A DNA stretch of 61,435 nucleotides, counting the filler, from Collodictyon triciliatum (lineage: Eukaryota), in the NCBI GenBank assembly GCA_043381765.1. It is 9 parts of 9 records of this genome, joined end to end, with 100 filler letters (N's around TTAATTAATTAA, not from the genome) between each part and the next. Parts side by side here need not be neighbours in the genome. Positions count along the whole stretch, not along the records: positions 34,187 to 40,926 come from JBHJMP010004279.1; 8 more parts are not named here. One strand, written 5' to 3'. This document shows, piece by piece, positions 34,017-59,800 of the stretch. Positions within the stretch are counted from its first letter, which is position 1, and every line of letters begins with the position of its first letter. The position numbers and the translations under genes are program-made. The notes under the pieces are model-generated. The model saw nothing but the letters and a program-made list of their open reading frames with translations, ran no database searches and had not been told where the DNA came from.

Positions 34017-34186
34017 CTTCCCTGTGCTGGATAGTGATGAGGCAGAAAGCGATAGGGGCAGAAGCCCTGCGTTGGATGGTCCGGTGNNNNNNNNNNNNNN
34101 NNNNNNNNNNNNNNNNNNNNNNNNNNNNNNTTAATTAATTAANNNNNNNNNNNNNNNNNNNNNNNNNNNNNNNNNNNNNNNNNNNN

Positions 34187-34335
34187 AATAAAAAACAATA
34201 AAAAACAATAAAAAACAATAAAAAACAATAAAAAACAATAAAAAACAATAAAAAACAATAAAAAACAATAAATAAACAATAAAAAACAATAAAAAACAAT
34301 AAAAAAACAATAAAAAACAATAAAAAACAAAAACA
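34187..34335. repeat. (AATAAAAAAC)n repeat at segment start
   Basis: Direct reading of the sequence. Confidence 0.9.
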
Positions 34336-34751
34336 AAAATGAAACATTAAAAATGAAAACAATAAAGGCGACTTGTTTCTTCTCTGTGAGTCATATTTTT
34401 GTTTTTTTGTTTGTTTGTTGTGTTGTGTCGTGTGGAGGAAACTATAGGCAAGGTCAATCCATAGAGTTGTGTTATTACCAGTCCGTCATAGCGGGAGAAT
34501 ATCCTCTGTACAATTAAACACGACAAACAACACATAGGCAATCACGTCAGTGGTGTTCAGCTTCAGGGGTACAGTCGCACAACACCGCTCACAGAACTAC
34601 ACAAAGGTCGAAGCAGAGCGGCAGAAAAGCCTTTATTTCATAACTTAAATTCATAAAGAAGGGCGGCGATGAGTATTCTCAACAGAAGGGAGTCAGACTT
34701 GAGTAGTCTATTTTTTTCCCCATTAATTGATGAGTAGGAATCGCACGAACG

Positions 34752-34831
<80 letters not shown>

Positions 34832-35907
34832 GTTTTGCTTCCACTGGTTAGCTGTGTATCAAAAGTTATAGTCGCAGATGATAAGGAAACAATATGAACC
34901 AAAACAAAATAGTGTAATACTTGTTATTTATCAGAATTATAGGCGGAGGATATGAAAAATGATATGGATGGACGGAGAAACACTTTAATGGATGATATAA
35001 GATGTAATAGAAGAGACATAATCTTTTTTTCTCCTTTTTTATATGTATATCCTAAATGCCAGGTATATAAACATATGATAATTGTTATTTTTATTGGTTA
35101 AGGGTTAATGGTACGCCTGATGATGTCGTTGGAAGATAAACCCCAGTCGACCATTCATATGATTGCTGGGCAGATAGGAAACGTTCACTTTATAGTAACT
35201 TTTCATGCACAATTATTATTTGTTATTATATTGGAATATATTTAGCAATTAAAAACACCGCATTTTCTTTCAATATCATCATTTTCCGACATACTACATT
35301 TAATTGCATATGCCATTAGTTTTTGCTTGAATCATAATCATTGTAGAGCACGGCTGTTTTCTCTTGAAAGTAGAACTGCTGAGGGTGAATAGTTTTCTTT
35401 ATCAAGTTTTTAACTTTGATTATAAATGCTGACAATCCCTTGCTGGGTAACGGAAAGGACTCAGACCTTGTAAAAATATACTTAATTCATACATATATTT
35501 ATATTGGTTGTAAAAATAAATTAAACAATCAAAAGGGATTGAATTATGAAAACAAATACATATATCTTATCTATCTATCTATCTTATGCACTTTTTTTAA
35601 AGAGAAAATGACATTAAAAGTGTAGTGATTGCTAACCATGAAGGGGAACATCCTGCAGTTCATGTTATAGAAAAAGTCCATAAATTGATTTTGCTTAATT
35701 ATCTGATTATGAAAAGTCATGCTTTAACGAGGCTGAAAGATTGAATGTGAAACAATTGGAGCCAAAGCGAGATGGAAGACGATAAAAAGGCCATCGGGTC
35801 AAGGCAACAGGATATGAGAGCGACTGACCACAAACCATCTGAAGCACAATCAGGTTTAATTAATCGTCTGGAATAAAATCTTTGAATGTACAATACACAT
35901 GATTGCA

Positions 35908-35989
<82 letters not shown>

Positions 35990-36659
35990 AAATAAGATAA
36001 TGCAAAAAAAAATGCATAAAATGAAGACATAAGCACACAAAATTAAAGAGAGGAGTGATTTGATAATAAAATAAGACCACGCCTTATGTGCATACTTTGC
36101 GGACAATTACGCGAATTAAATTGTGCGGGTCTCTCTTTTCCTGGGGATTCGCTCCACTTTACAGCTCATATTGCTACAAGAATATCAGGCAAGAAGGTGA
36201 TGATTGCTTTGATTGGATATTGAAAAATCTGTTACTATTCCAAGCAAAAAAGAAAAGAGTGGCAAATAGACACAGGACAACCTTGATACGTACCGTTCAA
36301 ATGAAGCAGCAAGACCAATACATAACCAAATAATCCATTTAGCATCAAGGACGTGTGCAACAAAACCAATATCTCGTCCATGCATTATCAATATGTTGTT
36401 CATACTTCAATGAGCTTTCTAAATGTCATATCATTCTGGAAAGGACTAAGCATAGTACATTTGCTTTTGGCAAAGGCTTATGAGGAAATAAATTTGTGAG
36501 CTGAGGAAGACAATCAGGGAAAACTTTGCTTTTGTGGGTGTAGATATCGTGGTTGGTAAACAAAAAAAAAAGTCGAATATAAAAAAATACAACTAGTGAG
36601 GGTGACATAGAGGGAAAAGAAAGTAATCTCATAAGAGACAGAGAAACACTTACACAGGA

Positions 36660-37060
36660 ATGCAAGTAATTTTCAAATAAAGAAACGGGGTGACTTCTTC
36701 GTGAGACATGTCACCAAATATATGCGCTGTTGAATATAATGCATCACTGAATTTCGAATCGCTATTAACGTTACAAAGTTGGCTGTGGACTACAAACTGA
36801 GATTAGACAAGCATGCTTATTTCTCCAGGGATACATACACGTGAAGCAAACCATATGTAGAAACCTAGCATAGAAAAGAATGTCTACACAAAATAAAATC
36901 GAAGAGATTAAACCTGGCCTTGCTTCTCTCATGCAAGCACAAGACCCAGCCTACAGGCCAATGCGCAGTACACAGTTCTTGATTACAGCCCGATTCTCCG
37001 TGCCAAACTGAAACCAGTTAGCGTCCATGCAAACAATGACCATATATTCGATACCAAATC
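36660..37060 (+). mobile_element. Degenerate 3' end of the L1/Tx1-like element, second copy
   Basis: 36900-37035 aligns by eye to 50940-51070, including an identical TCTCATGCAAGCACAAGACCCAG and nearby ACAGGCCAA. Confidence 0.7.
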
Positions 37061-37928
37061 CTTTACTATGTCGCGCAAATTAAAAGGAATATAATAAAAG
37101 ATTGAAAAGCAAAAGAAAAACAAATGAAATTTGATACAAAATCAAAAATAAAACAAATGAAAATAAAACATAACAAGAAACCAAAGAGAAGAAAAGAGAA
37201 ACAAAAGAAAAGAGAACAAAACAAAAAGAATTGCAGTGAACAGGTGAATCTTAAAGAATAAACCGAAACCATTCGCACTATGTCATAAACGCAAACACAT
37301 ACAAAACAACAAAACATTTCGCCGAATAATCACAACAACGACTGCAGATCCAAAAGACAATAGGGCAATCAGTCAGGATATGAACAGCCTTCAAGCCATT
37401 CGATGGATAAAATATAAAACAAAATAAATGCACGCAAAGCGGTTACATCTAGCGCTACAGCCCACCAACATTATGCGCAAGAAAGAAAAGAAAAAACTGT
37501 TCTATCGTTAACTATGTATTATGGAGTTAACGATACAACAAAAACATCGTGTCCATGAAGCTGACTTTGCGACTTGTAACCAAGCGAATAAAAAAAACAA
37601 ATGAAAAATCAAATGAGAGCAGACAGCCTCAGTAGCACAATGATATCCAAAACATAATCATTCTTTTAGCCTGTGATGCATACTCAAGGTCGATTACCAA
37701 ACAAACAGGAGACGTGTCAAGTTTATCGGTAACTGCTGGTAAGGTTAGGTTGGTTGATTTTTTTTTATTTTTTCATCCAACCTCTGCAAACAAGCTAGAA
37801 ATCATCTCCATTCATTTGGTTTGGCGGTCATCGTGATATAAATCACCTATTCTTGTTTTTGCGAAAAAAAGTGTGTATGGAAATGGATGAAAGGGTTGTT
37901 TAGATGGGCTGGATAGCAAACGAGCCAC

Positions 37929-40776
37929 TTATTGGGTCAGCATCATCTGCGCGCTCATCATTTGCTTTTCTGCATCTTCAGTGTGGGGATGGTCTGCACC
38001 ATACACGTGCTCATACACTTCCTTGGCTTTTTGGTAAATGTGCAAGGCCTCTTGGTATTTCTCCTGGTTCATTAGTAGAATACCAATATTGTAGTATGTA
38101 TCCCCAACATTAGGGTGCATTTCTCCAAATACTTTCAGCTTAATTTCGAGTGATTTATGGTAATACTCCAGAGCTTTCTCATGCCTATTATATAATTAGT
38201 AAATTAAGTGATAAATATATAAAGATTGCCAAATTAAACATACTTTCCGAGTTCATCGTAAACGTTTCCAATGTTATTATATGAGGTGGCAACATGAGGG
38301 TGGATTTCTCCTAGCACTTTCAGCTTAATTTCCAGTGACTTGTGGTGGTATTCCAGGGCTTCTGAATGTCTATTAATTAATTAATTAATTAATTAGTTAA
38401 GGGACACATACAAAAATATAGTCAAATAAAATATACTTTCCAAGGTTATAGTAAACAAGTCCAATATTATTATATGAAGTAGCGGCGTCAGGATGTAGTT
38501 CTCCAGATAATTTCAGAGTAATTTCAAGGTCTTTGTGGTAATATTCGAGTGCTTTTTCATTTCTATTAAAAAATAAGTTAATGAAAGGATTCATACGAAT
38601 GTAAAATCTTTTGGATCAAAAAAAACGAAAAAAAAATTGAACATAAAATCAAATAAAATATACTTTCCAAGTTGTCGATAGACGGATCCGATGTTATTAT
38701 ATGAAGCTGCAACATCAGGGTGTATTTCTCCGAAAACTTTCAATCGAATTTCCAGGGACTTGTCATAATATTCCAGAGCTTTTTCATACCTGTTAAATGA
38801 TATCTTAATGAAGGATAAACATAAATACATAAAAAAATATAACTTACTTCCGCAGTTGACGATAAACAATTCCCAGTAGATTCATATTTTTGCTATTCGA
38901 ACCTAATAAATGAACCAAAGTTAGCAACACACCCATAAAATCCAAATCAACTGACCAAACCCTCATCCGTCTCAACAGAGATGCGGTGCTCAAGAATCGG
39001 AATCAAAAAGGCATTCTCTTGTATATGTTGGAAGTACTTAACCAACTCAGAGCCAGCAGAATTCAGTTGCTGTTGTGCATATCCATTAAAATGAATTCAA
39101 TATTGGTACATGTAATTGAGTTTTATCACCTTGGCCAACTCACAATAGACAACTTTGTGGTCATATCCGTTCTTATTCAGCTCTCTCCAGCATTCATAAA
39201 ATTCGAAGCGATAGTTGCCATTCAGCATGCTCACAACAACCTAAAAACTATATTACAACACATGTCACAGTAATAAAAATAAATCAATTTAACCTTTTCA
39301 CTCTTCATAAAGTCCACTAGTTTATTGTATTCGCTCGAAATCCTAAGATTGTGGCATATTTCGGCAACAGCACTCTTGTCTTCAGTGTCAGAGCCGTATT
39401 CATCCAGCAGCCACAATCCATATTCACGTGCCTCATTTTTTGTGTATGCTTCATCCTTAAAGTATCGCTCTTTGATGGATTGCGTGAGCAGCTGGTGAGA
39501 GAATGCATATCTAAGGTAAGAAATTATGATTAGCAATTACGACCATTAAGAAACATATGAATACCCGTATCACCTCCCGTTCCTCACAAAGAGCGAATCC
39601 AGTAAGACAAAGAGAAATGATTTCCTAAAATAAAATAAAAAAATACAATTTATCAAAAGTGATAAGTATGAATCATATGACAGGAATAGATATACCAGAT
39701 CGCATGGTTAATTTGCATATGAATTTGGTTAAGTCGATGCTCCATGTATTTGTCCAGCTCGTTTTCATCAAGACCGATGCGTGACACATAAAGGACACTG
39801 ATGGACAGACGAACAATATCTTTTCCTAAAATTGCATGGATATGTCAATTAAATCATAATGGAAAAAACCACTTCATATGTATCACACAAAACCGTATTT
39901 CTTTTCCCAGCGACTCATCACAAGGTCGAACAAATTGACAACTCCTTTTTTATCCAACATCTCCCGCAATTCACTGTCTACTTTTTCATACACTCCAAAC
40001 ACACGAAGCTCATCTAGCACAATGCGCAGGTACAGTGGATGACCTGTTCTCGTATCCGCAATTAAAAAAATTATACTACAAAATGAAATTATATAAAAAT
40101 ATTCGAATTATATCGCTCACCTGTATGGTCAGAGTCTTTCAGTATCATCTCCATCTGTTTCTCGTTCAAGGTTTTGTTGTAGCGCTTGAAGAACGAGGTA
40201 GCTGCTTGTCTGATTCCGACATCGTCAAGCTTCGACACAGGGATAGCATTCAGCCCTGATGACCTGGCAACCTATTCAAAAGCGATTGGATTAATCCAAA
40301 TGTATTATATTCTCAAAATAAACAACAAACATTGCATGATTCGTGGGTGTCGATGGTTGATGCGACGATGGAGATGTTCTTTGGTGTCTTTTTGGGAAGC
40401 CATTCAAGGTGGTGGACGTGCTTGTTTTGTTCTGAATTGACCAACTGGTTGAATGCATCGATGACCAAGACAACCTGCTGTTTCCTGTATTGATAGGTTA
40501 GTCAGATAGTATATTCAATTAAAAAAAAAAGAGGTTATTGAAATCTACTCGTTTCTTGATGCAAGCTTGAGTATGTAGTCTAGTCCCTTCTTCAAAGCTT
40601 CTTTCCCTGCAACAAGACAAAAAAATGAATGCTTATTTATTTATTATTTATTTATTGAATGAAGAAAATGTAGAAAATGAAATAGCTATCATTTGACATA
40701 TAAACCTTCTTCGGAGTCAAGTTTCAGCTCGATTGCTTCATTTTCAACTAGAATGCGAGCTACACGCTCCACCAAA
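37929..40776 (-). CDS. NACHT/STAND NTPase with C-terminal TPR array (NPHP3/NWD-like), 5' truncated by segment end
   Basis: Open spliced exons give Walker B VVLVIDAFNQL, HLEWLPK..P..I.IVAST, GHPLYLRIVLDELRVFG, SRIGLDENEL and FSHQLL. These are followed by 42-aa TPRs (ALEYYxKxLEIxLKVFGExHPxVAxSYNNIGxVY). Confidence 0.9.
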
Positions 40777-40832
40777 CTATTTAAAAATAGGCGATTAAGA
40801 TGTATAGCTCTAATTTATATAATTGCATTATT

Positions 40833-40926
<94 letters not shown>

Positions 40927-41026
40927 NNNNNNNNNNNNNNNNNNNNNNNNNNNNNNNNNNNNNNNNNNNNTTAATTAATTAANNNNNNNNNNNNNNNNNN
41001 NNNNNNNNNNNNNNNNNNNNNNNNNN

Positions 41027-41128
41027 ACTCACTCACTCACTCACTCACTCACTCACTCACTCACTCACTCACTCACTCACTCACTCACTCACTCACTCAC
41101 TCACTCACTCACTCACTCACTCACTCAC
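41027..41128. repeat. (ACTC)n microsatellite
   Basis: Direct reading of the sequence. Confidence 0.95.
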
Positions 41129-41191
41129 TATCTGTAACACAGCAAGCGCTCCTAACAGAGTTCTCATTAGTCATTTCATCTATACTCTGAG

Positions 41192-44100
41192 ATGGATTTG
41201 GAGCCGCTTTTCTTTCGTCTTCACAGCCGACTTCTCTCGAGTTACACGAGGCTTGTGTCCCACAAATACCGCAGAATGGTCGAGCGAATGGTGTTAGTTC
41301 AAGGCGTCTGCCTTTTGTTGCTCCTGTTTGTGCTACACATGCGCTTCGTTGTGGAGGTTTTCATTTTCACTTCTTTGTCTGAAAGTATGGTATACATATT
41401 TGGCTACCTTTGATGATGTAAGAATAATTGTTTATATTGTAATTTTATTTTATCTCTCTTCATTTCATTCCATCCTGCACAAAATTGAAAGGAAGAATAA
41501 AAAAAAATCTCTCTTCATTTCATTCGTTCATTACGCTCTCAAAAATTAAACCTATTCCTTTATTTAATATAATTTTTTTTAGCCTGGTTGTGCGACTATA
41601 TTATCCAAATTTGACTCTGAAGAAGTAGATGTATACCAAGTTCAGGTACTATTACAAATAAATGGCCAATATTTTTATTCCTCACACTTATTCATCTCAA
41701 AAATACCAATAATTATACATAAAACTTTTCACTGTGTTTCGAATATCTTTACCCATCTTTCCTTTCTTTTTTTTTTGATGCACTTGGGAGTTCAGACTCT
41801 TTTTTACACTAGTACTCAGTTTTTTTCTTTAACATTTTGAACGAATGCATTTAATCTAAGATTCAAGCTCTTTGGCTGAAAATGAAGCGATCTATCAGAA
41901 AGGAACTGGAGCTCGTTCACACTTTGCAGAGTCAGATTGCTTCATATGAATCGGTACGCTTCAAGCTTTTTTTGAAGTTTTAAATCAATATGTTAAGTGT
42001 TTAATTAATTTGTATTAATGTAATATAATTTACTTTCCATACACTTGGATAGCCTCTGTCCTTACAGGACAAAACATTCTATGAAGACAAAGACGGTTTT
42101 TCATCGGGTGAATTTTTGAATCATCATATACCACATACTCAAATCATACATAACTGATTGCCGTTTTCCCTACTGCGCATCATTTTTCGTTAATGTGAAG
42201 TCTAATGAAGCATATATAAAAAATATCAGCATATTCCTCCTTTTACATGTGAGGAGAGTTCATCCCTGACCACTTTTTTATGATTATTATTATGTATGTT
42301 CATGGATATTCGTAGGCAATCAACCGGATTGGCTCAATGATCCACTTTACATTTACTCCAGAGAAAAAGGATTCTTAGAATTAAATCACCACATCAGAAG
42401 ATCACACGAAATCTTAACTGCGAATTTGACCCTGACCTCACATAATGAATGTCTCGGTGGGCCGTAAGAAATTTGTTTTCAATATCGATTGGTCAGGGTC
42501 AAGTAATGCTATACCAACCGACTCACTCATCATAGGCTCCTCCAGGCTCTTATTGAAATTTTTGTAGGATATGGTATGATTTCAACCTCGCAGAAAAAAA
42601 GCCCCCTCGAACTAACTTACGATATGAATTGAAGAGCAAAGTCAAGGATAGTGTCATCTTGATGATACGGAACCCTCTCTTAAGAATTTTTTTCTTTTTA
42701 ACACATTTCCTGTAGATACTATCATTTTGAATGCTTTCACTCAACACACGAAAGGAGTTGGATATGTTTTAAATCTGCATATATATGAGTTCTTTGATCT
42801 GTCACATCGATATACTACCACGGTATATGAAGGGCCAGCTGGTTCGTTTCTTTTACACATTTATATTATTCATTCCCAAAATTTTATCTTAAAGAAACTA
42901 ACAGCGAATGGTGCACATATTATAAATTCTGCTGGTTTTTTTATCTAAGGGTTTGCTAACATCCGGCATTACACTCCTTATCTTTAAGACTTTGTTGTTC
43001 AGAAAATCGGAATCATCATAACATCGTTGTTTTTGTTTTTCACCGCATCGACTTTGGTGTCCCTTTGCCTAAGAGAAGCGCAATTTAGAGTGTTCCAATT
43101 CACATGTACTCGAAACTGATATCATCTAATCATCCACTCCATCAATGTTGTAGTGTTTAACAATCGTGTCAATATTTTCGATTCTTCAATGTCTATTCCT
43201 GCTTAGATTGCTTTGAATCGAATAAAGGAAAAAAAAATTCCTGCTTAGATTGCTGATAAATGACAATAATTCTATTCGTTCAATCCCTGTCTTTATCGAT
43301 TCCATGTTTCAAGTATAAATACCCAATTAAACTGTTTTTTTCTCCGTTTTTATATATAGTTCAGCTCCAATATTTCACCAGACATCGTCTTCCGTGTGGG
43401 CGATTAATCATGTCTCACATTGTGAAGTCCTTGGTCTTTGTTTTGGTGTGCTTTTCTTGGAAATAAATGAATCAAATTTGAAGTAAAGTGTCTTCAACTA
43501 CCAGCTCATCCCTTCCTGTACCATAGAACGATATAATGAATGATTTTTTTTATATCCTCCGCCAGGTTTTGATAGGCATTCTGTTTTTCTTCGCCGAGTT
43601 TCTCGAAGACCAAGTCCTTGCTATCATGCTGCTGGCAAATTGTTGGGTCTGCGAGCTATTTTCCATAATCTGGTTGGCGATTATTAATTAATAATTGTAT
43701 ACTATGCTTCTTTTATGTTAATTGTTTCATTTCAGTATGCCTTAATAATCCTTTTTTTCTTCTAGTATTCACTAACTTGCACATTATCTATTTCACAAAT
43801 AATGATAATTAAATATCGCGTGTCGTTAATAGTGTCCGAACAGAATCTTCAGTGCGCTTCTTTCCTCGCTTTTTCTTGCTCTACTTCTTGCTCTTTCACA
43901 TATACTACTTTTCGTTTCCTTTTGGCTTTACATACTTGGCCTTCATTACAATGGGCGTGTTTGTGCAGCATTCTGTCCTCTACTTTACCAACCACCACGA
44001 AATCCCGGCGCTCCACTATGGCCTCATCTCGCAAGATACACCACGATTTCCTTTCACAGAATATGCGGCCCACCCAGACCAGCACCAACAACAGCACCAC

Positions 44101-44244
44101 CAAAGTGGACATCAGAGTCAAAATCGCCAACAAGAACTCGAATCGGAGCAAAACACCCCGCGAAATCCGCCTCCGTTGTCCTTTGATGACACGAGGTCCT
44201 TTGGAGAGCGTATCCACGGCTCCCAGATTCCGAATATGTGGTGA
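41192..44244 (+). CDS. TMEM259: Membralin (TMEM259), multi-exon
   Basis: MDLEPLFFRLHSRL...LHMRFVVEPGC, DPLYIYSREKGFLEL, FVGYDTIILN, SLFLFFTASTLVSLCLREAQ, IGILFFFAEFLEDQ, RFFPRFFLLYFLLFHIYYFSFPFGF and HEIPAL are membralin-family motifs. Confidence 0.92.
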
Positions 44245-44425
44245 TACCCAAGCGGCGTAATATACACAGTAGCGTCAACACCACTTTATTTTCTACATGT
44301 ATCCTTTTCACTTTTTCTCTTAAAAAAAAAAAGAAGAAGCTTCGTCTGGCTCCAGTATAAACCGATGTCTTTTCTTTACATTCTTTTACATGCTTTTTCT
44401 TGGTTTATGATATCTAGCGTGTTTA

Positions 44426-44795
44426 TTATATAGAAAACTTGAGTTTCCATTGTTGCAACTGTGTTTTGAAGTCTGCACACAGTTTGGTGATGAGTTTCCA
44501 CATCCCAATTTGCCAAAACCCTTTCGGCTGCATGAACATGTCCGCCCACCACTTCATGGTCAGTGATATCCATGCGGTTTTGGGTGTGATGAGTCCAACG
44601 CCTCCTTCTGTGGGTGGCTTAATAAGTGTTTTGATTTTGTATTGCTGTCTCTTTGTTGTGGTGAAGGTGCGGCATATGCTCTCCAGTGTGTCGAGATGCT
44701 TTTGTGGTAGGTGAGAGCCCTTCATGTTGTGGATGAGGGTCGATAGCATGAGTTGGTTCCATAGCCTCGCTTTTCCGATGTCTGACAGATGGTAT
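44426..44795 (-). mobile_element. L1/Tx1-like non-LTR retrotransposon ORF2 fragment (post-RT region)
   Basis: HLSDIGKARLWNQLMLSTLIH...LIKPPTEGGVGLITP..AW..LTMKWW matches the LS-x2-GK-x2-L-xN and P-x2-EGGLG...KW motifs that follow the RT core in L1/Tx1 elements. Confidence 0.82.
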
Positions 44796-44864
44796 CTATA
44801 AAAAGGATCATATGATGATTAATTAATCAAAATAAAGCTATTTAATAAAACGAAAATGTCTCAC

Positions 44865-47689
44865 CTGTATCCTAAGCCAGCCATAACTATCCCAACTTTC
44901 TTCATGTTCATGGTCTCGTAATAACGAATGAAAAATGATTGGGCAACATCCTTTCATCACCTTCGGTCAACTTTGTGGCAGGTATGGGCTCCAACCCACT
45001 TTTCTTATAAGGATTATGATAGATTTATTTAACTTCCCAAATCATGTTTACCAACAATATAAAAATATCCGAAAATTAAATAAACCCTAAATACCGTGCA
45101 AGACTCATGGGTATCAATGGTGGACACAACCACGGTAAGTTTTGATGGTGTTCTACAGGCAACCAGGTCAGCAGATGTGAGGCTTTCTTGAAACTAGTGA
45201 ATTTGAGTGGTGGCATCGATGAGATATCCACACTTCTCGTCTTTATAAAAAGTATTTCATATTCCCCATTTACCCTTTATTCATTTCAAGGTATTTAATT
45301 CCCACTTAATCATGAAAAAAATAAACAAGGAAGATTTAAAATTCATACAAGTATTACTTGTTTCACTCCGGAATCATTTTAAGAGAGCCTAAAGTCCCAT
45401 TTATATAGTCTGGAGGAAATTAAAGTAAAATTATAGTAAAATACGATCTTTCAAATTAAAAATAGAAAGTATAGCCAAATTAACATTCTAATCACCCGTC
45501 TCCAGCTTCGTTCGTCCAATAAAGTTGACAGAGTTTGTGACCAAAGTCCATAAGCGATTCGAAGCACTAAATAATAAGTTTGAATCAAAAACCATATATC
45601 ATTTAATAAAACTTTTTTAAATTTAATAAATGAAAGTAACTAATTTTTTCCCGCAGTTGTTGAGATAGGTGCATCCGACAAAATGGAAAAGTCATTAAGC
45701 TTAGAATGTTTCACTACTTCAAGGTCACTTGCTGTAGCAACTATGAGCGATGACTTTCCAACCCCTAGACTCGGCAGCAAGAACGGTTATTTTGGACTTC
45801 TTCACATTGAGCTGATTCATATACTGGTAAAATGATTGGTAGAAAATAAAAAGATATTTTTGGTCATTTTGATTACTCATTCTTCATTTCAACTTACTTG
45901 TCCCGTGATGGTCTTGAGAAGCTCCTTTCTTCCGCCAAACCCAGACAGTCTATGCATCTCGAACTGGTGCTGCGCTTGGTTTTTTGGGTCATCAACTAAC
46001 GGTTAGTTATTTGAACAAAATATAGATGTAATATGTATCTATAATCAATATTGAAATTTGTAAAAACAATTAAAAACTATCCACTATTCCCAAAGTCACG
46101 CTCGATGGTGTAGATGAGATGATAAGTCACAAAGTCCGAATAATCCTTCGCACCTTGGTATAAAACATGCCCGAACTTGGCCTTGACGTTCCCTTTGAGC
46201 TCCTCCTGCTTTTTACGCTAAAATATGATAAATTTTAATTGAATTAATTTTATCATTATATGATTACCAGAAAATATAAGCATCATAAATTCTATCGATT
46301 CTTTACATCTTCTTTGCTTTCAACTTTGGATAGCTTTCTTTCTTCATCGCTCTAAGCTTGTTGGACGGCATAGTGCACATCAAGGAGATAAAATAAGGCA
46401 AAACTCCATGCTGGTTTGCCAATAAGATGTAAGTGTTGAATCGTAGCATGTTTTTTGATTAGGATAATGATTTAATTTTTAAAATTATTCATGATAAGAA
46501 AATAAAAATCATTGTTTTGATTTAACCTCGTATTCAGCCACACTCAATCCGTAATTAGGTTATGAGAGGGAATGGGCCATTGGTTTTGCTGCGCCATTCC
46601 ACCAGCATCCTTCATGGCAGCATCGGCTTGGTTTTCAGTATTTCATCAAGGCGGGCTTGTTTGTTCAGCTCGGGTTTGCTTTGGTCAGTAATTCAGCTTA
46701 TAAACACACCGAGAGAGCACACAAAGTATGGGTATTTTCCGATGGAGTCCAAACAGCAAATCGCTGCCTTGGAATGCAATAAGAAGAAATTGAAGTTTAT
46801 TATTTTATGAAATGCTACATATTCTTAAAATATTCAAAATATAGTATTTATAATATTGTGATTACCCATCCCTCACTACTGTCCACAGATGTCAGTCTCC
46901 AGTGCAAGTCAATAAAGACAAGGTCCAGTCCCTTCGATTTTGCAAGCCCCTTCAATCTTATATTAAGATAAAACTGTTAGAAAAATAAAAGTATCAAATT
47001 ATCAATCATGTTTTCATTATTATAAAAATATATTTTACTAACTCAGGGGCTCCATTCTTGAAGAACTCGTCTCTTTCTTGCTGCATGTCACGGAAAGTCG
47101 AGGAAAGGAAAACACGGATGACACGCTCATCAAAGACAATGAGTGGCAATGGTGTCGATGTCACGTATATTTGTGGAGCCGGATTCCACTTCTTGTATTG
47201 CCTCTCATTCAGGTCTTCACGAGCAAGATTCGTCTGATTTGAAATGGAGATCATATTTCACAAAATGGAATGTATTTGTATATTTTATTCATTTTTAATT
47301 AATTATTAATTGACTTGTCAAGAAGTATGCAAGTGCGGATGAGCGCGATAGAGCCTTTTTTCTTCCAAACCAAGACCTGCACCAATATTTAAATTTAATT
47401 TAGTTGATTTATTGATATCAAATAAATTAATAATAAAATAGTCATAAAAAAAGATAAATCGAATCTGAACCATGAAACGGAAATGGGGGCTTTGCTCTTT
47501 CGTAGAGTTTCTTGGCAATATCGTACCTCTCACGGCATTTTTTCTACAATTTTTAAGGATTGGAAACTATATTCCATCATTGTTCAAAAAACAAATAAAA
47601 AAATTAAAAGATGGTTTTTATAACCCCAAGACTTCCCAAATGGCCAACATTTTGTCCAATTAGATATCGAATGATTGCATGGAGCAAAT
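44865..47689 (-). pseudogene. DUF4062-NACHT pseudogene, paralog of the 37929-40776 gene
   Basis: RVIRVFLSSTFRDMQQERD, FIDLHW and CLDSI.KYPYFVCSLG (DUF4062); FGGRKELL; Walker A AES-GVGKSSL broken by a +1 frameshift (about 45765). In-frame stops at 46693-46695 and 46352-46354. Shares STIDTHESC and intron positions with the other copy. Confidence 0.85.
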
Positions 47690-47864
47690 CTGCAAGAATA
47701 TTTATATGTCACTCGCTCATACAAAATAAATCGATTATATATGAAAAAATCCAAAAATAGTTCTNNNNNNNNNNNNNNNNNNNNNNNNNNNNNNNNNNNN
47801 NNNNNNNNTTAATTAATTAANNNNNNNNNNNNNNNNNNNNNNNNNNNNNNNNNNNNNNNNNNNN

Positions 47865-54100: not shown

Positions 54101-54700
54101 AAACCAGCATAACTTCTCCAGCATAGGCATTAGCGAAACCGGCAAGAATATTGTATATTATTTTTTGCAGACTCCGAAGAAATGTTCCTTTATTTTTTGA
54201 ATCAGCAACTACAGTATTACTCAAAATTTTGGAAACATAATTAATGAATTATCCATTCTAATAGTCCGAAGATATTCATCCGTTCAACTTGACTCCTTGA
54301 ATCTCAAAATTATACTTTAATCAACCAGATTCAGTTATGACACATGTTTGGGAAAATCTCTACAGGTATTTTTATGACTAAATAAACGCTAGATTCTGAT
54401 ACTTAACATCTCAGTTAATTTTTACCTTTACTTTTCATAAGGCGTAAATGATATTGAATGATGTATGAATTAAGAATAGCCAAATTGGAAAAATCAATCA
54501 TGAGTTAATTTCAACAATATTAAAGGGGGTTTCATTGATACAAAAAAAATATCTATATGATTAATACAATATTTTCGACCTTTTTTTTTATTCTTCCATT
54601 NNNNNNNNNNNNNNNNNNNNNNNNNNNNNNNNNNNNNNNNNNNNTTAATTAATTAANNNNNNNNNNNNNNNNNNNNNNNNNNNNNNNNNNNNNNNNNNNN

Positions 54701-56808: not shown

Positions 56809-59800
56809 GGAATTTTCATACAGATTAATTTTATGGTAAAATGTGAACTCAAAAAGAATTTTTATCAGAATATGATATCCGGAATACCAAACGATGAAGA
56901 GCTGCTCAACATTCTTGACAGTGTCTCTGAGTCTATGAGCAAGAGCATGTGCACCAAATTATATCGACAGATCGTTACAGAGCGAGTCCATATCGACCAA
57001 GCGAGCAAGCAAATTCAAACCCTCCAGCGCGAGTTATCTCTAGCAAAAGAAAAAGTGTTCGATGCCGAGGAGGCAAGTATATTGTACGCAAATGTGTGAA
57101 AGCCTATTGCTTAAAGTTGCATGGTACTTCTATGTTTTCTTGATAGTACGTCTTTATTTTTATTTCAGTATTTTACCTTTTAAATTTTGGCTCTTTTTTT
57201 TTACATCAAATGGCCTCGTCTCTTTCATCACAAGTGTCGTATTATCAAATAGACTATCCACCAAATGAGACTTAAGTGCGATATCACCGTGCTTGGAATG
57301 GTCAGGGAGCAACAAGATAAATCAGTTATTCTTGCTACGAGACTGGAGTCTTCAATTCCGGAGTCCCAGGTATCGACATCATCTAAGCTGATAACACCCA
57401 TAAATTCCATATCGAATTAAAGGGTAGATGGTAGCTTATTTTGAATGCAAGAGCATCAGTTCGTCTATTTTGAATTTACCGTATTGTTACAATCGCATTA
57501 TAGGTTGAGGTTGTAAAAAAAGAAATCAAATCTCTATACAAATACCAGGTAATGACGCTGCATAGTTTTGATATTGTGTCTTCGCTATCTTCTTCCTTTT
57601 TAAAAAAAAAAAATCTAAGGGTACCGCATGTAGAAAAAATTGAAAAAGATTCATGAGGAGAAGCAACTGGAAGTGTCTGTTGAACAGAATCAGAGACAGC
57701 ACGACATAAAAATTCTATCGACAGAAAATGCAAAATTGCAAGAGAAATTTGCAGAGATAACAAAGGTTTTTCAATATTCTGAATGGAATAAGCACTCCTT
57801 TCAATATAAAAAAAACCAAAAATTAGAAATCAATCGGAATATCCATTGATTTTATTGTGTCCTAACCATGCAGGAATTCGAAGTTCTTAAGCAAAGGAGT
57901 AAAAAAAAGCCTGAATTGACTCCTCGTCCTCACGAAGTCCCTGTTGAGGATATTGGTACAGATGGATTAAGTAATGAAGATGATGATGGCGATTTTATTG
58001 TGTCAACACCAGGAACTACCCCGATACGCGTGGTAAAAGTGGATTTAGAGAATGATGGTTCTGATGGAGAGCATCAATCACCCATCGTTTCGAACACAGA
58101 AAAGTATCTGACCGTTTACAATTGATTTTTTTTTCTTTTTCTATTCTTTCCCTTTTTCATAACTCACTTTTGATTTGACATTTAATCAAACGAAGCTTAT
58201 TTTCGTTCATGTCTTATGGCCATAAAGGCTAATATCTGTATTTCGAGATGTATAGTCTTACCACCAATTACGTTTTTTTTTTTTATTCTCACTAATTAAA
58301 AAAAAAAATAGCCCTGGTCCCACAAATGTCTTTACAAGGCTTACGGACCGCGGCAGCTTTACGGGGATTCATAGAGAAATTCATTCAACCGGTGTACCTC
58401 AAAAGAGAGATGGTACCATCTCACATACAAACACAAAGTCAGAATTCGTCGAAAATTGTCTCTTCAAAGGGTACTTTAAAAAAAGAACTAAATAATTGTC
58501 GCAAAAATTTCTTAATGTGATGGGATTGGGAAAATATCATATCTCTTTTGGCCGCTGATTTCAGTTATCGCATTTATTACAATCCCCTTTTATATTTTAT
58601 TTATGAAACCCCCAGGTATCAATTTGAGGCAGCCGAGAAATCAGTGAATCATCATGATGGGATTATCACCCACATCAGTGCAGCAGAGAATGCTATCTAT
58701 ACAGCATCCAATGACAAAAAGATCTTTTGCTGTGATATCCAAAGACCAAATTTGAGGACAAAAGTTGTGGAGCATTCTGATTTAATTCGGTCTGTTTGCT
58801 TCAATAAAAAAAAAAAAAATTGAATTATTTGATTTATCGATGTACATTGGCTATATCACACTCCATCTCACGTAATAGGAAACCTTGTCTATTTTTTTAA
58901 AAAAAAAAACCATCATTCTTTTTTATTGATGAGGAAGCTATTATCTCCATTTCGCTTCAGGTCGATGATTACAGTATCCAAAGCACAAACCCTCGGCGAC
59001 AGGTCAGATTGTTATAGTCCTGCTGCGGATTTACTTGTATATGGTTCTAAGGATAAAACAATACGAATTTTTGACCTTAAATCTGGACAAGCCGTCCATA
59101 CGCTACAAGGACACCGCGGAGAGGTCAGGCTTATTAGATGGACGAGGGGGGGTTACAATATACTTTCATTATTATAAAAATTGCAGTAATAAGGTTTAGA
59201 AGACCCAAAATTGAGGGTTTAGTATTGTAATCTACTCTGATTATTTAATTTTAAAGTATAATGACGATTACAAAGGTCACTTCGCTTCTATTCACTGGCT
59301 CTAAAAGCGGAATTGAAACTCTCATAAGTGGTGGAGAGGACGCCTGTATTCGAGTTTGGGATATAAGAATGCTGCACGCACCAAAGCAAAAGTAGTCACT
59401 AAAAAAAAAAACCGAATAATATATCGCATAGTTTGGTTTCAGTCTTTCAATAGATAATCTTTGGCGATTGCATGTGATATATAGAATACTATCTGGACAT
59501 CGAGGTTCAATATTCTCTTTAAAGATGTCAGAGGATGAAGAAATTTTATACAGCGCATCGCGTGACCACTACGTACGCTCGTGGGGCTTGGCAGACGCTC
59601 GTCATTCAGAATCACGCATGTTTGAACCGCCTCATTATGATAGGTTCTTGTCTTATTCACATAAACCGACGTCGTTTGCTATGTGCTATGCGAGTTTTTA
59701 CACAAGAATCGAGTGTTTTTTTTTGTTAGAAAAAAAAAGTCAAGAGTACGTAGTTAATTTACTATAGAAGATATGATAATATTGTTTAAAGACCCCGCTC

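Follow-up and report, generated by a model that had tools for sequence, protein, structure and literature searches.

A truncated TPR gene of Collodictyon triciliatum with tandem 126-nucleotide repeat exons, probably of the NIR-NACHT NLR-like family

We analysed a 61,435-base stretch of DNA from Collodictyon triciliatum (assembly GCA_043381765.1), hereafter the window, in which a sequence-only reading had pointed to an NLR-like (nucleotide-binding leucine-rich-repeat-like) receptor gene with one tetratricopeptide repeat (TPR) per 126-nucleotide (nt) exon. The gene lies on a ~6.7-kb scaffold, block 34187-40926 of the window. The gene probably encodes a DUF4062(NIR)-NACHT-TPR STAND NTPase, of the TTC41/NPHP3-like branch of NLR-like proteins, and its 3′ two thirds lie in the window. 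Its TPR arm is built from equal, symmetric exons, and this cassette layout looks like an old exon duplication rather than an active generator of diversity.

Gene model and family

The gene model has 15 exons and 629 codons in one open frame on the minus strand (40775-37929), closed by a TAA stop (37931-37929). Its 14 introns, 53-101 nt long, are all GT-AG. The gene is incomplete, as its 5′ end is lost at the scaffold end (40926), beside a linker between assembly blocks. The features are given below in the direction of transcription; all exons are from the gene model, and further evidence stands in brackets.

40927-41026, no strand, linker N44-TTAATTAATTAA-N44 that cuts away the 5′ third of the gene
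40706-40775, minus, exon 1 of the scaffold, region between Walker A and B of the NTPase; true 5′ border uncertain (RNA joint 40605->40705, skips 99, CT..AC)
40549-40606, minus, exon 2 (RNA joints)
40331-40484, minus, exon 3, Walker B region, VVLVIDAFNQL ... IVASTID (aligns to the Walker B region of the L002, L005 and L007 open reading frames)
40121-40271, minus, exon 4
39894-40043, minus, exon 5, conserved HPLYLRIVLDELRVFGVYEK helical motif, query of the homology search (homologue matches)
39696-39825, minus, exon 6 (RNA joint 39824->39893, skips 68, CT..AC)
39574-39624, minus, exon 7
39294-39510, minus, exon 8, helical linker region
39130-39240, minus, exon 9 (RNA joint 39069->39130, skips 60, CT..AC)
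38961-39069, minus, exon 10 (RNA joint 38899->38958, skips 58, cut +3)
38848-38902, minus, exon 11, partial repeat unit (helix A of the first TPR), ending in the same split Lys codon as the cassettes
38664-38789, minus, TPR cassette exon 1, 126 nt, phase 2-2 (TPR_12 E 1.5e-10)
38563-38663, minus, intron after cassette 1, 101 nt, starts GTATATTTTATTTGA
38437-38562, minus, TPR cassette exon 2, 126 nt, phase 2-2 (TPR_12 E 1.1e-6)
38370-38436, minus, intron after cassette 2, 67 nt, starts GTATATTTTATTTGA
38244-38369, minus, TPR cassette exon 3, 126 nt, phase 2-2, skipped in one RNA junction type (TPR_10 E 9.6e-9)
38185-38243, minus, intron after cassette 3, 59 nt, starts GTATGTTTAATTTGG
37929-38184, minus, last exon, fourth repeat unit fused to the capping TPR (TPR_10 E 5.2e-17)

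The frame stays open for 38 codons past the TAA (37812-37928, minus strand, until a TGA), and a ciliate genetic code was therefore considered. It was rejected, and the open frame after the stop taken as chance, because none of the 629 codons is TAA or TAG.

Splicing was examined in contigs assembled from two public sequencing runs, X2 and X8, which are RNA by guess only and are coded as other organisms (A and B). Among the runs screened, none with the sequence was recorded as RNA, and none contained half or more of the words of the stretch. Of the 28 joints found in the contigs, 15 were shown, and among these, 4 of the 14 predicted introns are spliced exactly (38899/38958, 39069/39130, 39824/39893 and 40605/40705) and read CT..AC at their ends on the plus strand; for a fifth intron the joint is off by no more than one base. 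One unspliced contig was also present. In all, 159 contigs from X2 and 141 from X8 match the locus at 88-100% identity, in a graded series from under 90% to over 99%, and 34 of the 159 X2 contigs are spliced and 99-100% identical to it. The exon-intron layout recurs in a metagenome contig (L001), which is 80% identical in the amino acids of exon 5 and 69.6% identical in nucleotides overall.

Exon 5 was the query of the homology search, and matched 26 metagenome loci and 87 representative proteins at E<=1e-3. It is 37-51% identical to 24 intronless metagenome open reading frames (ORFs). Compared as whole proteins, E values range from 2e-33 to 5e-57; the L005 ORF gives the latter value, residues 38-613 of our product aligning to its residues 347-931. 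When 20 of the top representatives were looked up, 9 turned out to be distinct Trinity genes of the freshwater protist Diphylleia rotans and the rest metagenome proteins, with no animal protein among the 20. The spliced product is 38-48% identical to Diphylleia transcripts over ~600 aligned residues. With the Diphylleia protein P0111, blastp gave 42.7% identity over 668 columns (533 bits, residues 1-616 against 331-998). These identities should be read as marking the nearest sampled lineage, and no more.

Full-length homologues disclose the architecture to which the exons seem to belong. Three of the intronless ORFs (931-1199 amino acids) carry DUF4062, NACHT/NPHP3_N/AAA_16, NPHP3_hel and TPR_NPHP3/TPR_12 matches (Pfam). 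The same DUF4062-NACHT-TPR layout is shared by four TPR-type Diphylleia homologues, and a fifth Diphylleia protein adds WD40 arrays. DUF4062 is N-terminal in 4 of 4 TPR-type Diphylleia homologues and in 3 of 3 metagenome ORFs scanned; a GESGxGKS P-loop and 5-6 KLC-type TPRs are also found in the homologues. NPHP3_hel passes its cutoff in L005 (46.1 bits, cutoff 27.9), and TPR_NPHP3 passes in L005, L007, P0111 and P0119. NB-ARC (PF00931) had no match in the exons of the gene or in the 8 homologues scanned, where NACHT/NPHP3_N matched instead. In the gene itself, TPR_10 and TPR_12 match four exons (E 5e-17 to 1e-6), meaning that the C-terminal, superstructure-forming repeats are present. The NLR-like label is thus supported by homology to DUF4062(NIR)-NACHT/NPHP3_N-TPR proteins, and the NLR-like architecture proposed from the sequence alone stands: a spliced eukaryotic gene for what is probably a STAND NTPase of NACHT type, followed by KLC-type TPRs of 42 residues.

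Because alignments start at residue ~331-347 of the relatives, ~330 N-terminal residues, presumably including DUF4062 and the P-loop, have been lost beyond the end of the scaffold. Residue 1 of the product aligns to residue 331 of P0111, inside the NACHT (286-446) and NPHP3_N (280-390) matches of that protein. To judge from the homologues and from a paralogue on the next block, the lost part would have carried the P-loop and a NIR/DUF4062 effector domain.

That paralogue consists of pieces between 44882 and 47140 on the minus strand, lying in different frames, so that this second member may be degenerate:

47033-47140, minus, N-terminal DUF4062/NIR motif (VIRVFLSSTFRDMQQERDEF) of a second, diverged member (tblastn with three metagenome ORFs, E 3e-5 to 2.8e-4)
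45643-45786, minus, P-loop-like GVGKSS open frame of the second member (no Pfam match for the piece alone)
44882-45154, minus, Walker-B/STIDTHES region of the second member (31% identical to residues 75-138 of the studied gene)

Against Pfam DUF4062 the first piece scores E 3.3e-4 and 21.2 bits, below the cutoff of 24.7. Just downstream, 43766-44818 holds overlapping long open frames (116-164 amino acids) on both strands with no Pfam match; one of them, 44429-44818, may correspond to the C-terminal part of a non-LTR retrotransposon ORF2.

Several observations weigh against this assignment or against its extension to immunity. The P-loop and the N-terminal effector are absent from the scaffold, and the full architecture comes from relatives. 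Taken alone, exon 3, with Walker B, reaches E 0.0047 and 17.2 bits against Pfam NACHT, below the cutoff of 26.7, and the last exon reaches 34 bits against TPR_NPHP3, where the cutoff is 100. With the PADLOC Avs models the homologues fall outside Avs1-4, the best scores being 15.9 bits for Avs2 and 14.8 bits for Avs1b. NPHP3, moreover, is known as a ciliary protein and not as an immune one. Finally, the human NWD1, NWD2 and NPHP3 NIR domains are reported to have shown no NADase activity (bioRxiv 10.64898/2026.09.04.749371, accessible text), and effector chemistry may therefore not transfer. The Avs2 score comes from L007 (E 5.8e-4); L002, L005, P0111 and P0115 had no match to that model. Overall, PADLOC and NCBIfam scans returned generic TPR or weak Avs matches only. 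In a word-index protein search, exon 39294-39509 found no match, the HPLYL exon one, and the last exon generic TPR proteins only (26-52% identity).

The repeat cassettes and their history

The three cassettes (38789-38664, 38562-38437 and 38369-38244, minus strand) are each exactly 126 nt long, with AG upstream and GT downstream. Each opens on base 3 of a Lys codon and closes with AA, so that the introns are in phase 2 and the exons symmetric. Their translations are, in order, K-YEKALEYYDKSLEIRLKVFGEIHPDVAASYNNIGSVYRQLG, K-NEKALEYYHKDLEITLKLSGELHPDAATSYNNIGLVYYNLG and K-HSEALEYHHKSLEIKLKVLGEIHPHVATSYNNIGNVYDELG. Coordinates, borders, phase and the shared G-K junction are all as first described, and so are the set positions at which the cassettes vary (NNIG-S/L/N/I; VY-RQ/YN/DE), as read from the translations. 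There are however four introns, not three, at the same position of the repeat, since 38847-38790, before cassette 1, is also in phase 2 and splits the same Lys codon. The TPR arm is therefore composed of a partial unit, three units of 126 nt, and a further 126 nt fused to the cap, with introns at the Lys codon of the A-B turn.

A further point of the description has to be modified. Each cassette covers positions 18-42 and then 1-16 of the TPR_10 profile (Pfam), and hence encodes helix B, the linker, and helix A of the next TPR. One 42-residue repeat period per 126 nt was correct, but the period is not one structural TPR.

The introns after cassettes 1 and 2 begin alike, as had been noticed: their first 15 nt are identical. 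The identity extends over 23 nt across the exon-intron junction CTTGGAAA/GTATATTTTATTTGA (38641-38671 and 38414-38444, minus strand). Only GT is common to the 11 other donors of the gene, meaning that the shared GTATATTTTATTTGA start is not a general donor consensus. Such an identical junction is unexpected given the synonymous divergence of ~1.6 between cassettes 1 and 2, and may reflect local gene conversion or a splicing constraint.

To compare the repeats, four units of 41 codons were aligned and pairwise synonymous (dS) and non-synonymous (dN) rates were computed by the Nei-Gojobori method, five unit pairs having a finite dS. The units are 57-71% identical to each other in amino acids and 65-74% in nucleotides. 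Against 19 units taken from four Diphylleia proteins, no identity above 57% was reached, and within those proteins the units resemble each other less. Among the three cassettes dS is 1.06-1.58, and it is saturated against the fourth unit; dN/dS is 0.14-0.18 among the cassettes and 0.10-0.18 with the fourth unit included. Unit number varies in the family, with 4 full units here and 6 in P0111. A relaxed tblastn (E up to 50) revealed no further TPR unit in the window, whether inactivated, relic or on the opposite strand, the best match off the gene being 18 amino acids long with E 0.16.

Since the units are closer to each other than to those of Diphylleia, are equal in length and phase, and share an intron start, we infer that, in this lineage, an exon was duplicated in tandem together with its intron and the TPR arm was extended in this way, in agreement with the duplication proposed at the outset. 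This duplication would be ancient (dS >= 1), and the units appear to have been under purifying selection since. Ongoing shuffling is not supported: with these dS, dN/dS and identity values, and with no relic exons in the window, the locus bears no sign of it.

Skipping, diversification and function

With symmetric cassettes a unit can be lost, gained or skipped without a frame shift, and one RNA joint fits such an event. Joint 38183->38436 (cut +1, CT..AC), present in one contig each of X2 and X8, skips 252 nt, i. e. an intron, cassette 3 and the next intron, and links cassette 2 to the last exon with the reading frame kept. Near-identical versions with one extra letter were also present. The anchors of this joint, 24-26 nt long, show 7 and 9 mismatches in 26 with the alternative repeats of the gene, hence a misplaced constitutive junction does not account for it. 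A related gene that lacks one of the units, be it a paralogue or an orthologue, could explain the joint equally well, however. The predicted exon skipping is thus matched by an in-frame joint, but one that is not distinguishable from a paralogue.

How would such a protein work? By analogy with STAND/NLR-like proteins and with bacterial DUF4062-Avs proteins, a ligand would be bound by the concave face of the TPR solenoid. Binding would relieve autoinhibition, the NACHT module would oligomerise upon nucleotide binding, and the N-terminal effector would in turn be activated (a NADase in the tested bacterial and TEP1 NIR domains). DUF4062 has been renamed NIR, and is the NADase effector of bacterial Avs-type defence proteins; it is also reported at the N-terminus of many eukaryotic NLR-like proteins, among them TTC41, NWD1/2, TEP1 and, marginally, NPHP3 (bioRxiv 10.64898/2026.09.04.749371, accessible text). 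A role in non-self sensing for the present gene is something we only infer.

It is possible, though doubtful, that the gene product is instead a scaffold or regulator like NPHP3/TTC41 with no part in immunity, such as a cilium-associated protein of a flagellate, the exon pattern being a fossil of duplication without foreign recognition. Nephrocystin-3-named Pfam models (NPHP3_N, NPHP3_hel, TPR_NPHP3) do match the homologues, the repeats are under purifying selection, and among repeat proteins outside immunity, too, tandem exon duplication commonly leaves each symmetric exon with a single repeat. In addition, mammalian NIR-NLR-like proteins are without a shown immune role, and several lack NADase activity, according to the accessible text of bioRxiv 10.64898/2026.09.04.749371. 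Copy number speaks the other way: the family is multi-copy, with 9 or more Trinity genes in Diphylleia, two members among 9 random scaffolds of ~6.7 kb here, and many RNA contigs at graded identity, which is atypical for a housekeeping scaffold with a single function. The nearest non-eukaryotic relatives, furthermore, are DUF4062-STAND-TPR ORFs of the kind that act in phage defence.

Does the cassette design diversify the protein? The sequence-only reading held that symmetric one-repeat exons actively vary the ligand-binding surface of a non-self sensor by skipping, gain, loss or shuffling, as proposed for the NB-ARC-TPR genes of Ectocarpus. We consider this unlikely. Any cassette can indeed be removed or added in frame, the four TPR introns being all in phase 2 at the same site, and unit number differs between this gene and P0111. 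The skipping joint occurs in both runs with anchors that discriminate between the gene's own repeats, and in X8 there is also a joint that 'goes back 182'; in-register jumps between cassettes are present as well. The most variable positions of the unit, 36, 39 and 40, correspond in the Pfam register to TPR positions 9, 12 and 13, which lie on the concave ligand face. These same positions, however, vary most in TPR proteins of every kind (PMC1261162), and are therefore not specific evidence for immune diversification: the sites vary where a ligand surface is expected, but in a manner general to TPR proteins. The values of dS (1.06-1.58) and dN/dS (0.14-0.18) among the cassettes argue against recent activity, and so does the 57-71% identity of the units, compared to more than 85% in the concertedly evolving repeats of fungal NLRs. 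Only three cassettes are present, and relic, inactivated or opposite-strand TPR exons are lacking in the window, the introns of 58-101 nt being too short for any. As for the RNA, the runs are coded as other organisms and contain many paralogous contigs, so that the skipping joint may stem from a paralogue or orthologue. In Diphylleia, none of 8 isoform pairs (within 90% clusters) had an internal indel, hence none of 42 amino acids; all were plain truncations. We conclude that in-frame cassette variation is a latent property of this locus, not a demonstrated diversification device, and that immune diversification is possible but unsupported here.

A wider conjecture is that a little-sampled, diphyllatean-like lineage of protists expanded a NIR-NACHT-TPR family with a sensor arm of symmetric one-repeat exons, in which cassette skipping, or unequal exchange between paralogues, makes receptor variants. 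The exon-cassette receptor design proposed for brown algae would then have been invented independently a second time, now on the NACHT/NADase branch to which bacterial antiphage proteins also belong. We regard it as quite unlikely.

It is highly improbable that we are dealing with a pseudogene, left as a dead fragment on a short scaffold without a placement: a missing 5′ third, a scaffold end in ~87 nt of poly(A/T), and a next-block member of degenerate aspect, with pieces in different frames and a long open frame after them, would fit, but the 629 codons in 15 exons contain no stop, all splice sites are intact, dN/dS is 0.10-0.18, spliced X2 contigs reach 99-100% identity (34 of 159), and the truncation falls at an assembly linker rather than at a biological break.

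Setting in the window and comparison with known systems

The window is made of blocks parted by eight identical 100-base linkers (44 N, TTAATTAATTAA, 44 N):

6749-6848, linker N44-TTAATTAATTAA-N44
13555-13654, same
20401-20500, same
27245-27344, same
34087-34186, same
40927-41026, same
47765-47864, same
54601-54700, same

The first block is 6748 bases long, cut at the window start, and is followed by blocks of 6706, 6746, 6744, 6742, 6740, 6738, 6736 and at least 6735 bases. Apart from the single outlier of 6706, lengths drop by exactly 2 bases apiece, from 6746 to 6736. This looks like a concatenation of short unplaced scaffolds sorted by length, hence adjacency across linkers is uninformative on genome order. 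The scaffold of the studied gene ends in a poly(A/T) run of ~87 nt (40840-40926), and the next block starts with a (GAGT)n microsatellite of ~27 units (41027-41135); these simple repeats are probably the points at which assembly broke.

Other blocks carry unrelated genes. On the plus strand, 1376-3800 probably holds a gene for a mitochondrial carrier that binds calcium, as an EF-hand exon (E 1.7e-6) lies upstream of exons matching mitochondrial carriers (Mito_carr E 7.7e-11). At 9535-9663 (minus strand, Pfam E 1.2e-16), next to a gap of 897 N, are encoded the last 43 residues of ubiquitin; this fragment differs at two positions from the invariant animal sequence, which hints at a non-animal source. 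An animal (rotifer-like) origin of the DNA was accordingly discarded, Diphylleia supplying the closest named relatives of the studied gene. An HMG-box exon lies at 23312-23836 (minus strand, E 8.2e-11), and two WD40-repeat exons at 58833-59767 (plus strand).

The parallel drawn with the brown alga Ectocarpus is apt, as both have TPR exons of 126 nt and 42 residues. In the NB-ARC loci of Ectocarpus, 124 such exons were counted in 13 loci, with relic exons in introns (Zambounis et al. 2012, PMC3341825, accessible text, also for what follows on this alga). In both cases a STAND NTPase is followed by 42-residue TPRs with one repeat period per 126-nt exon, the exon border falls at the G-K-Y turn (the Ectocarpus search motif starts GKYxEA), and the family is multi-copy; the Ectocarpus genes were proposed as candidate receptors. 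The differences are as clear. The NTPase is of NB-ARC type in Ectocarpus but of NACHT/NPHP3_N type in the homologues of our gene, and a locus has on average ~9.5 cassettes there against 3 here. In our relaxed tblastn of the window, no inactivated TPR exons were found in the introns of the gene. The genome studied here is AT-rich with introns of ~60 nt, and its nearest relatives are diphyllatean, not stramenopile. The border also seems offset by a few bases, lying within the Lys codon here and before the Gly in the Ectocarpus motif.

Fungal NLRs likewise combine NACHT or NB-ARC with KLC-type TPR_10 repeats whose variable sites lie on the concave face. Their TPR, ANK and WD repeats are number-polymorphic, evolve in concert, and are more than 85% identical (Dyrka et al. 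2014, PMC4986451), compared to 57-71%, with dS >= 1, in our gene; a layout of one repeat per exon is not described in the accessible text of that paper.

In domain content the homologues, with DUF4062, a NACHT-type STAND module, an NPHP3-type helical domain and TPRs, conform to the DUF4062-STAND-TPR layout described among eukaryotic NIR-NLR-like proteins such as TTC41, NPHP3, NWD1/2 and TEP1. The studied gene differs in that its own N-terminus is missing, and the accessible text of bioRxiv 10.64898/2026.09.04.749371 makes no mention of an exon-per-repeat structure. Bacterial DUF4062-Avs2-type STAND-TPR defence proteins have the same domain order; in contrast, the PADLOC Avs models give at most 15.9 bits on the ORFs and Diphylleia proteins, and our eukaryotic gene has 14 introns.

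For now, what the locus shows is an exon duplication, ordinary and old, within a truncated member of a multi-copy NIR-NACHT-TPR family. If the cassette layout were general in that family, NLR-like sensors in which each symmetric exon encodes one repeat would have two or more separate origins, one on the NB-ARC clade of STAND proteins (brown algae) and one on the NACHT clade (here), in eukaryotic supergroups unrelated to one another. The family would then be a tractable system in which to study whether protists diversify their innate receptors by splicing or by exchanging exons, and the DUF4062/NIR-STAND-TPR proteins, linked in bacteria to antiphage NAD+ depletion, would gain a eukaryotic branch that is multi-copy and rich in introns. 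Compared to the systems above, this is a known exon design, in a new lineage and a different STAND clade.

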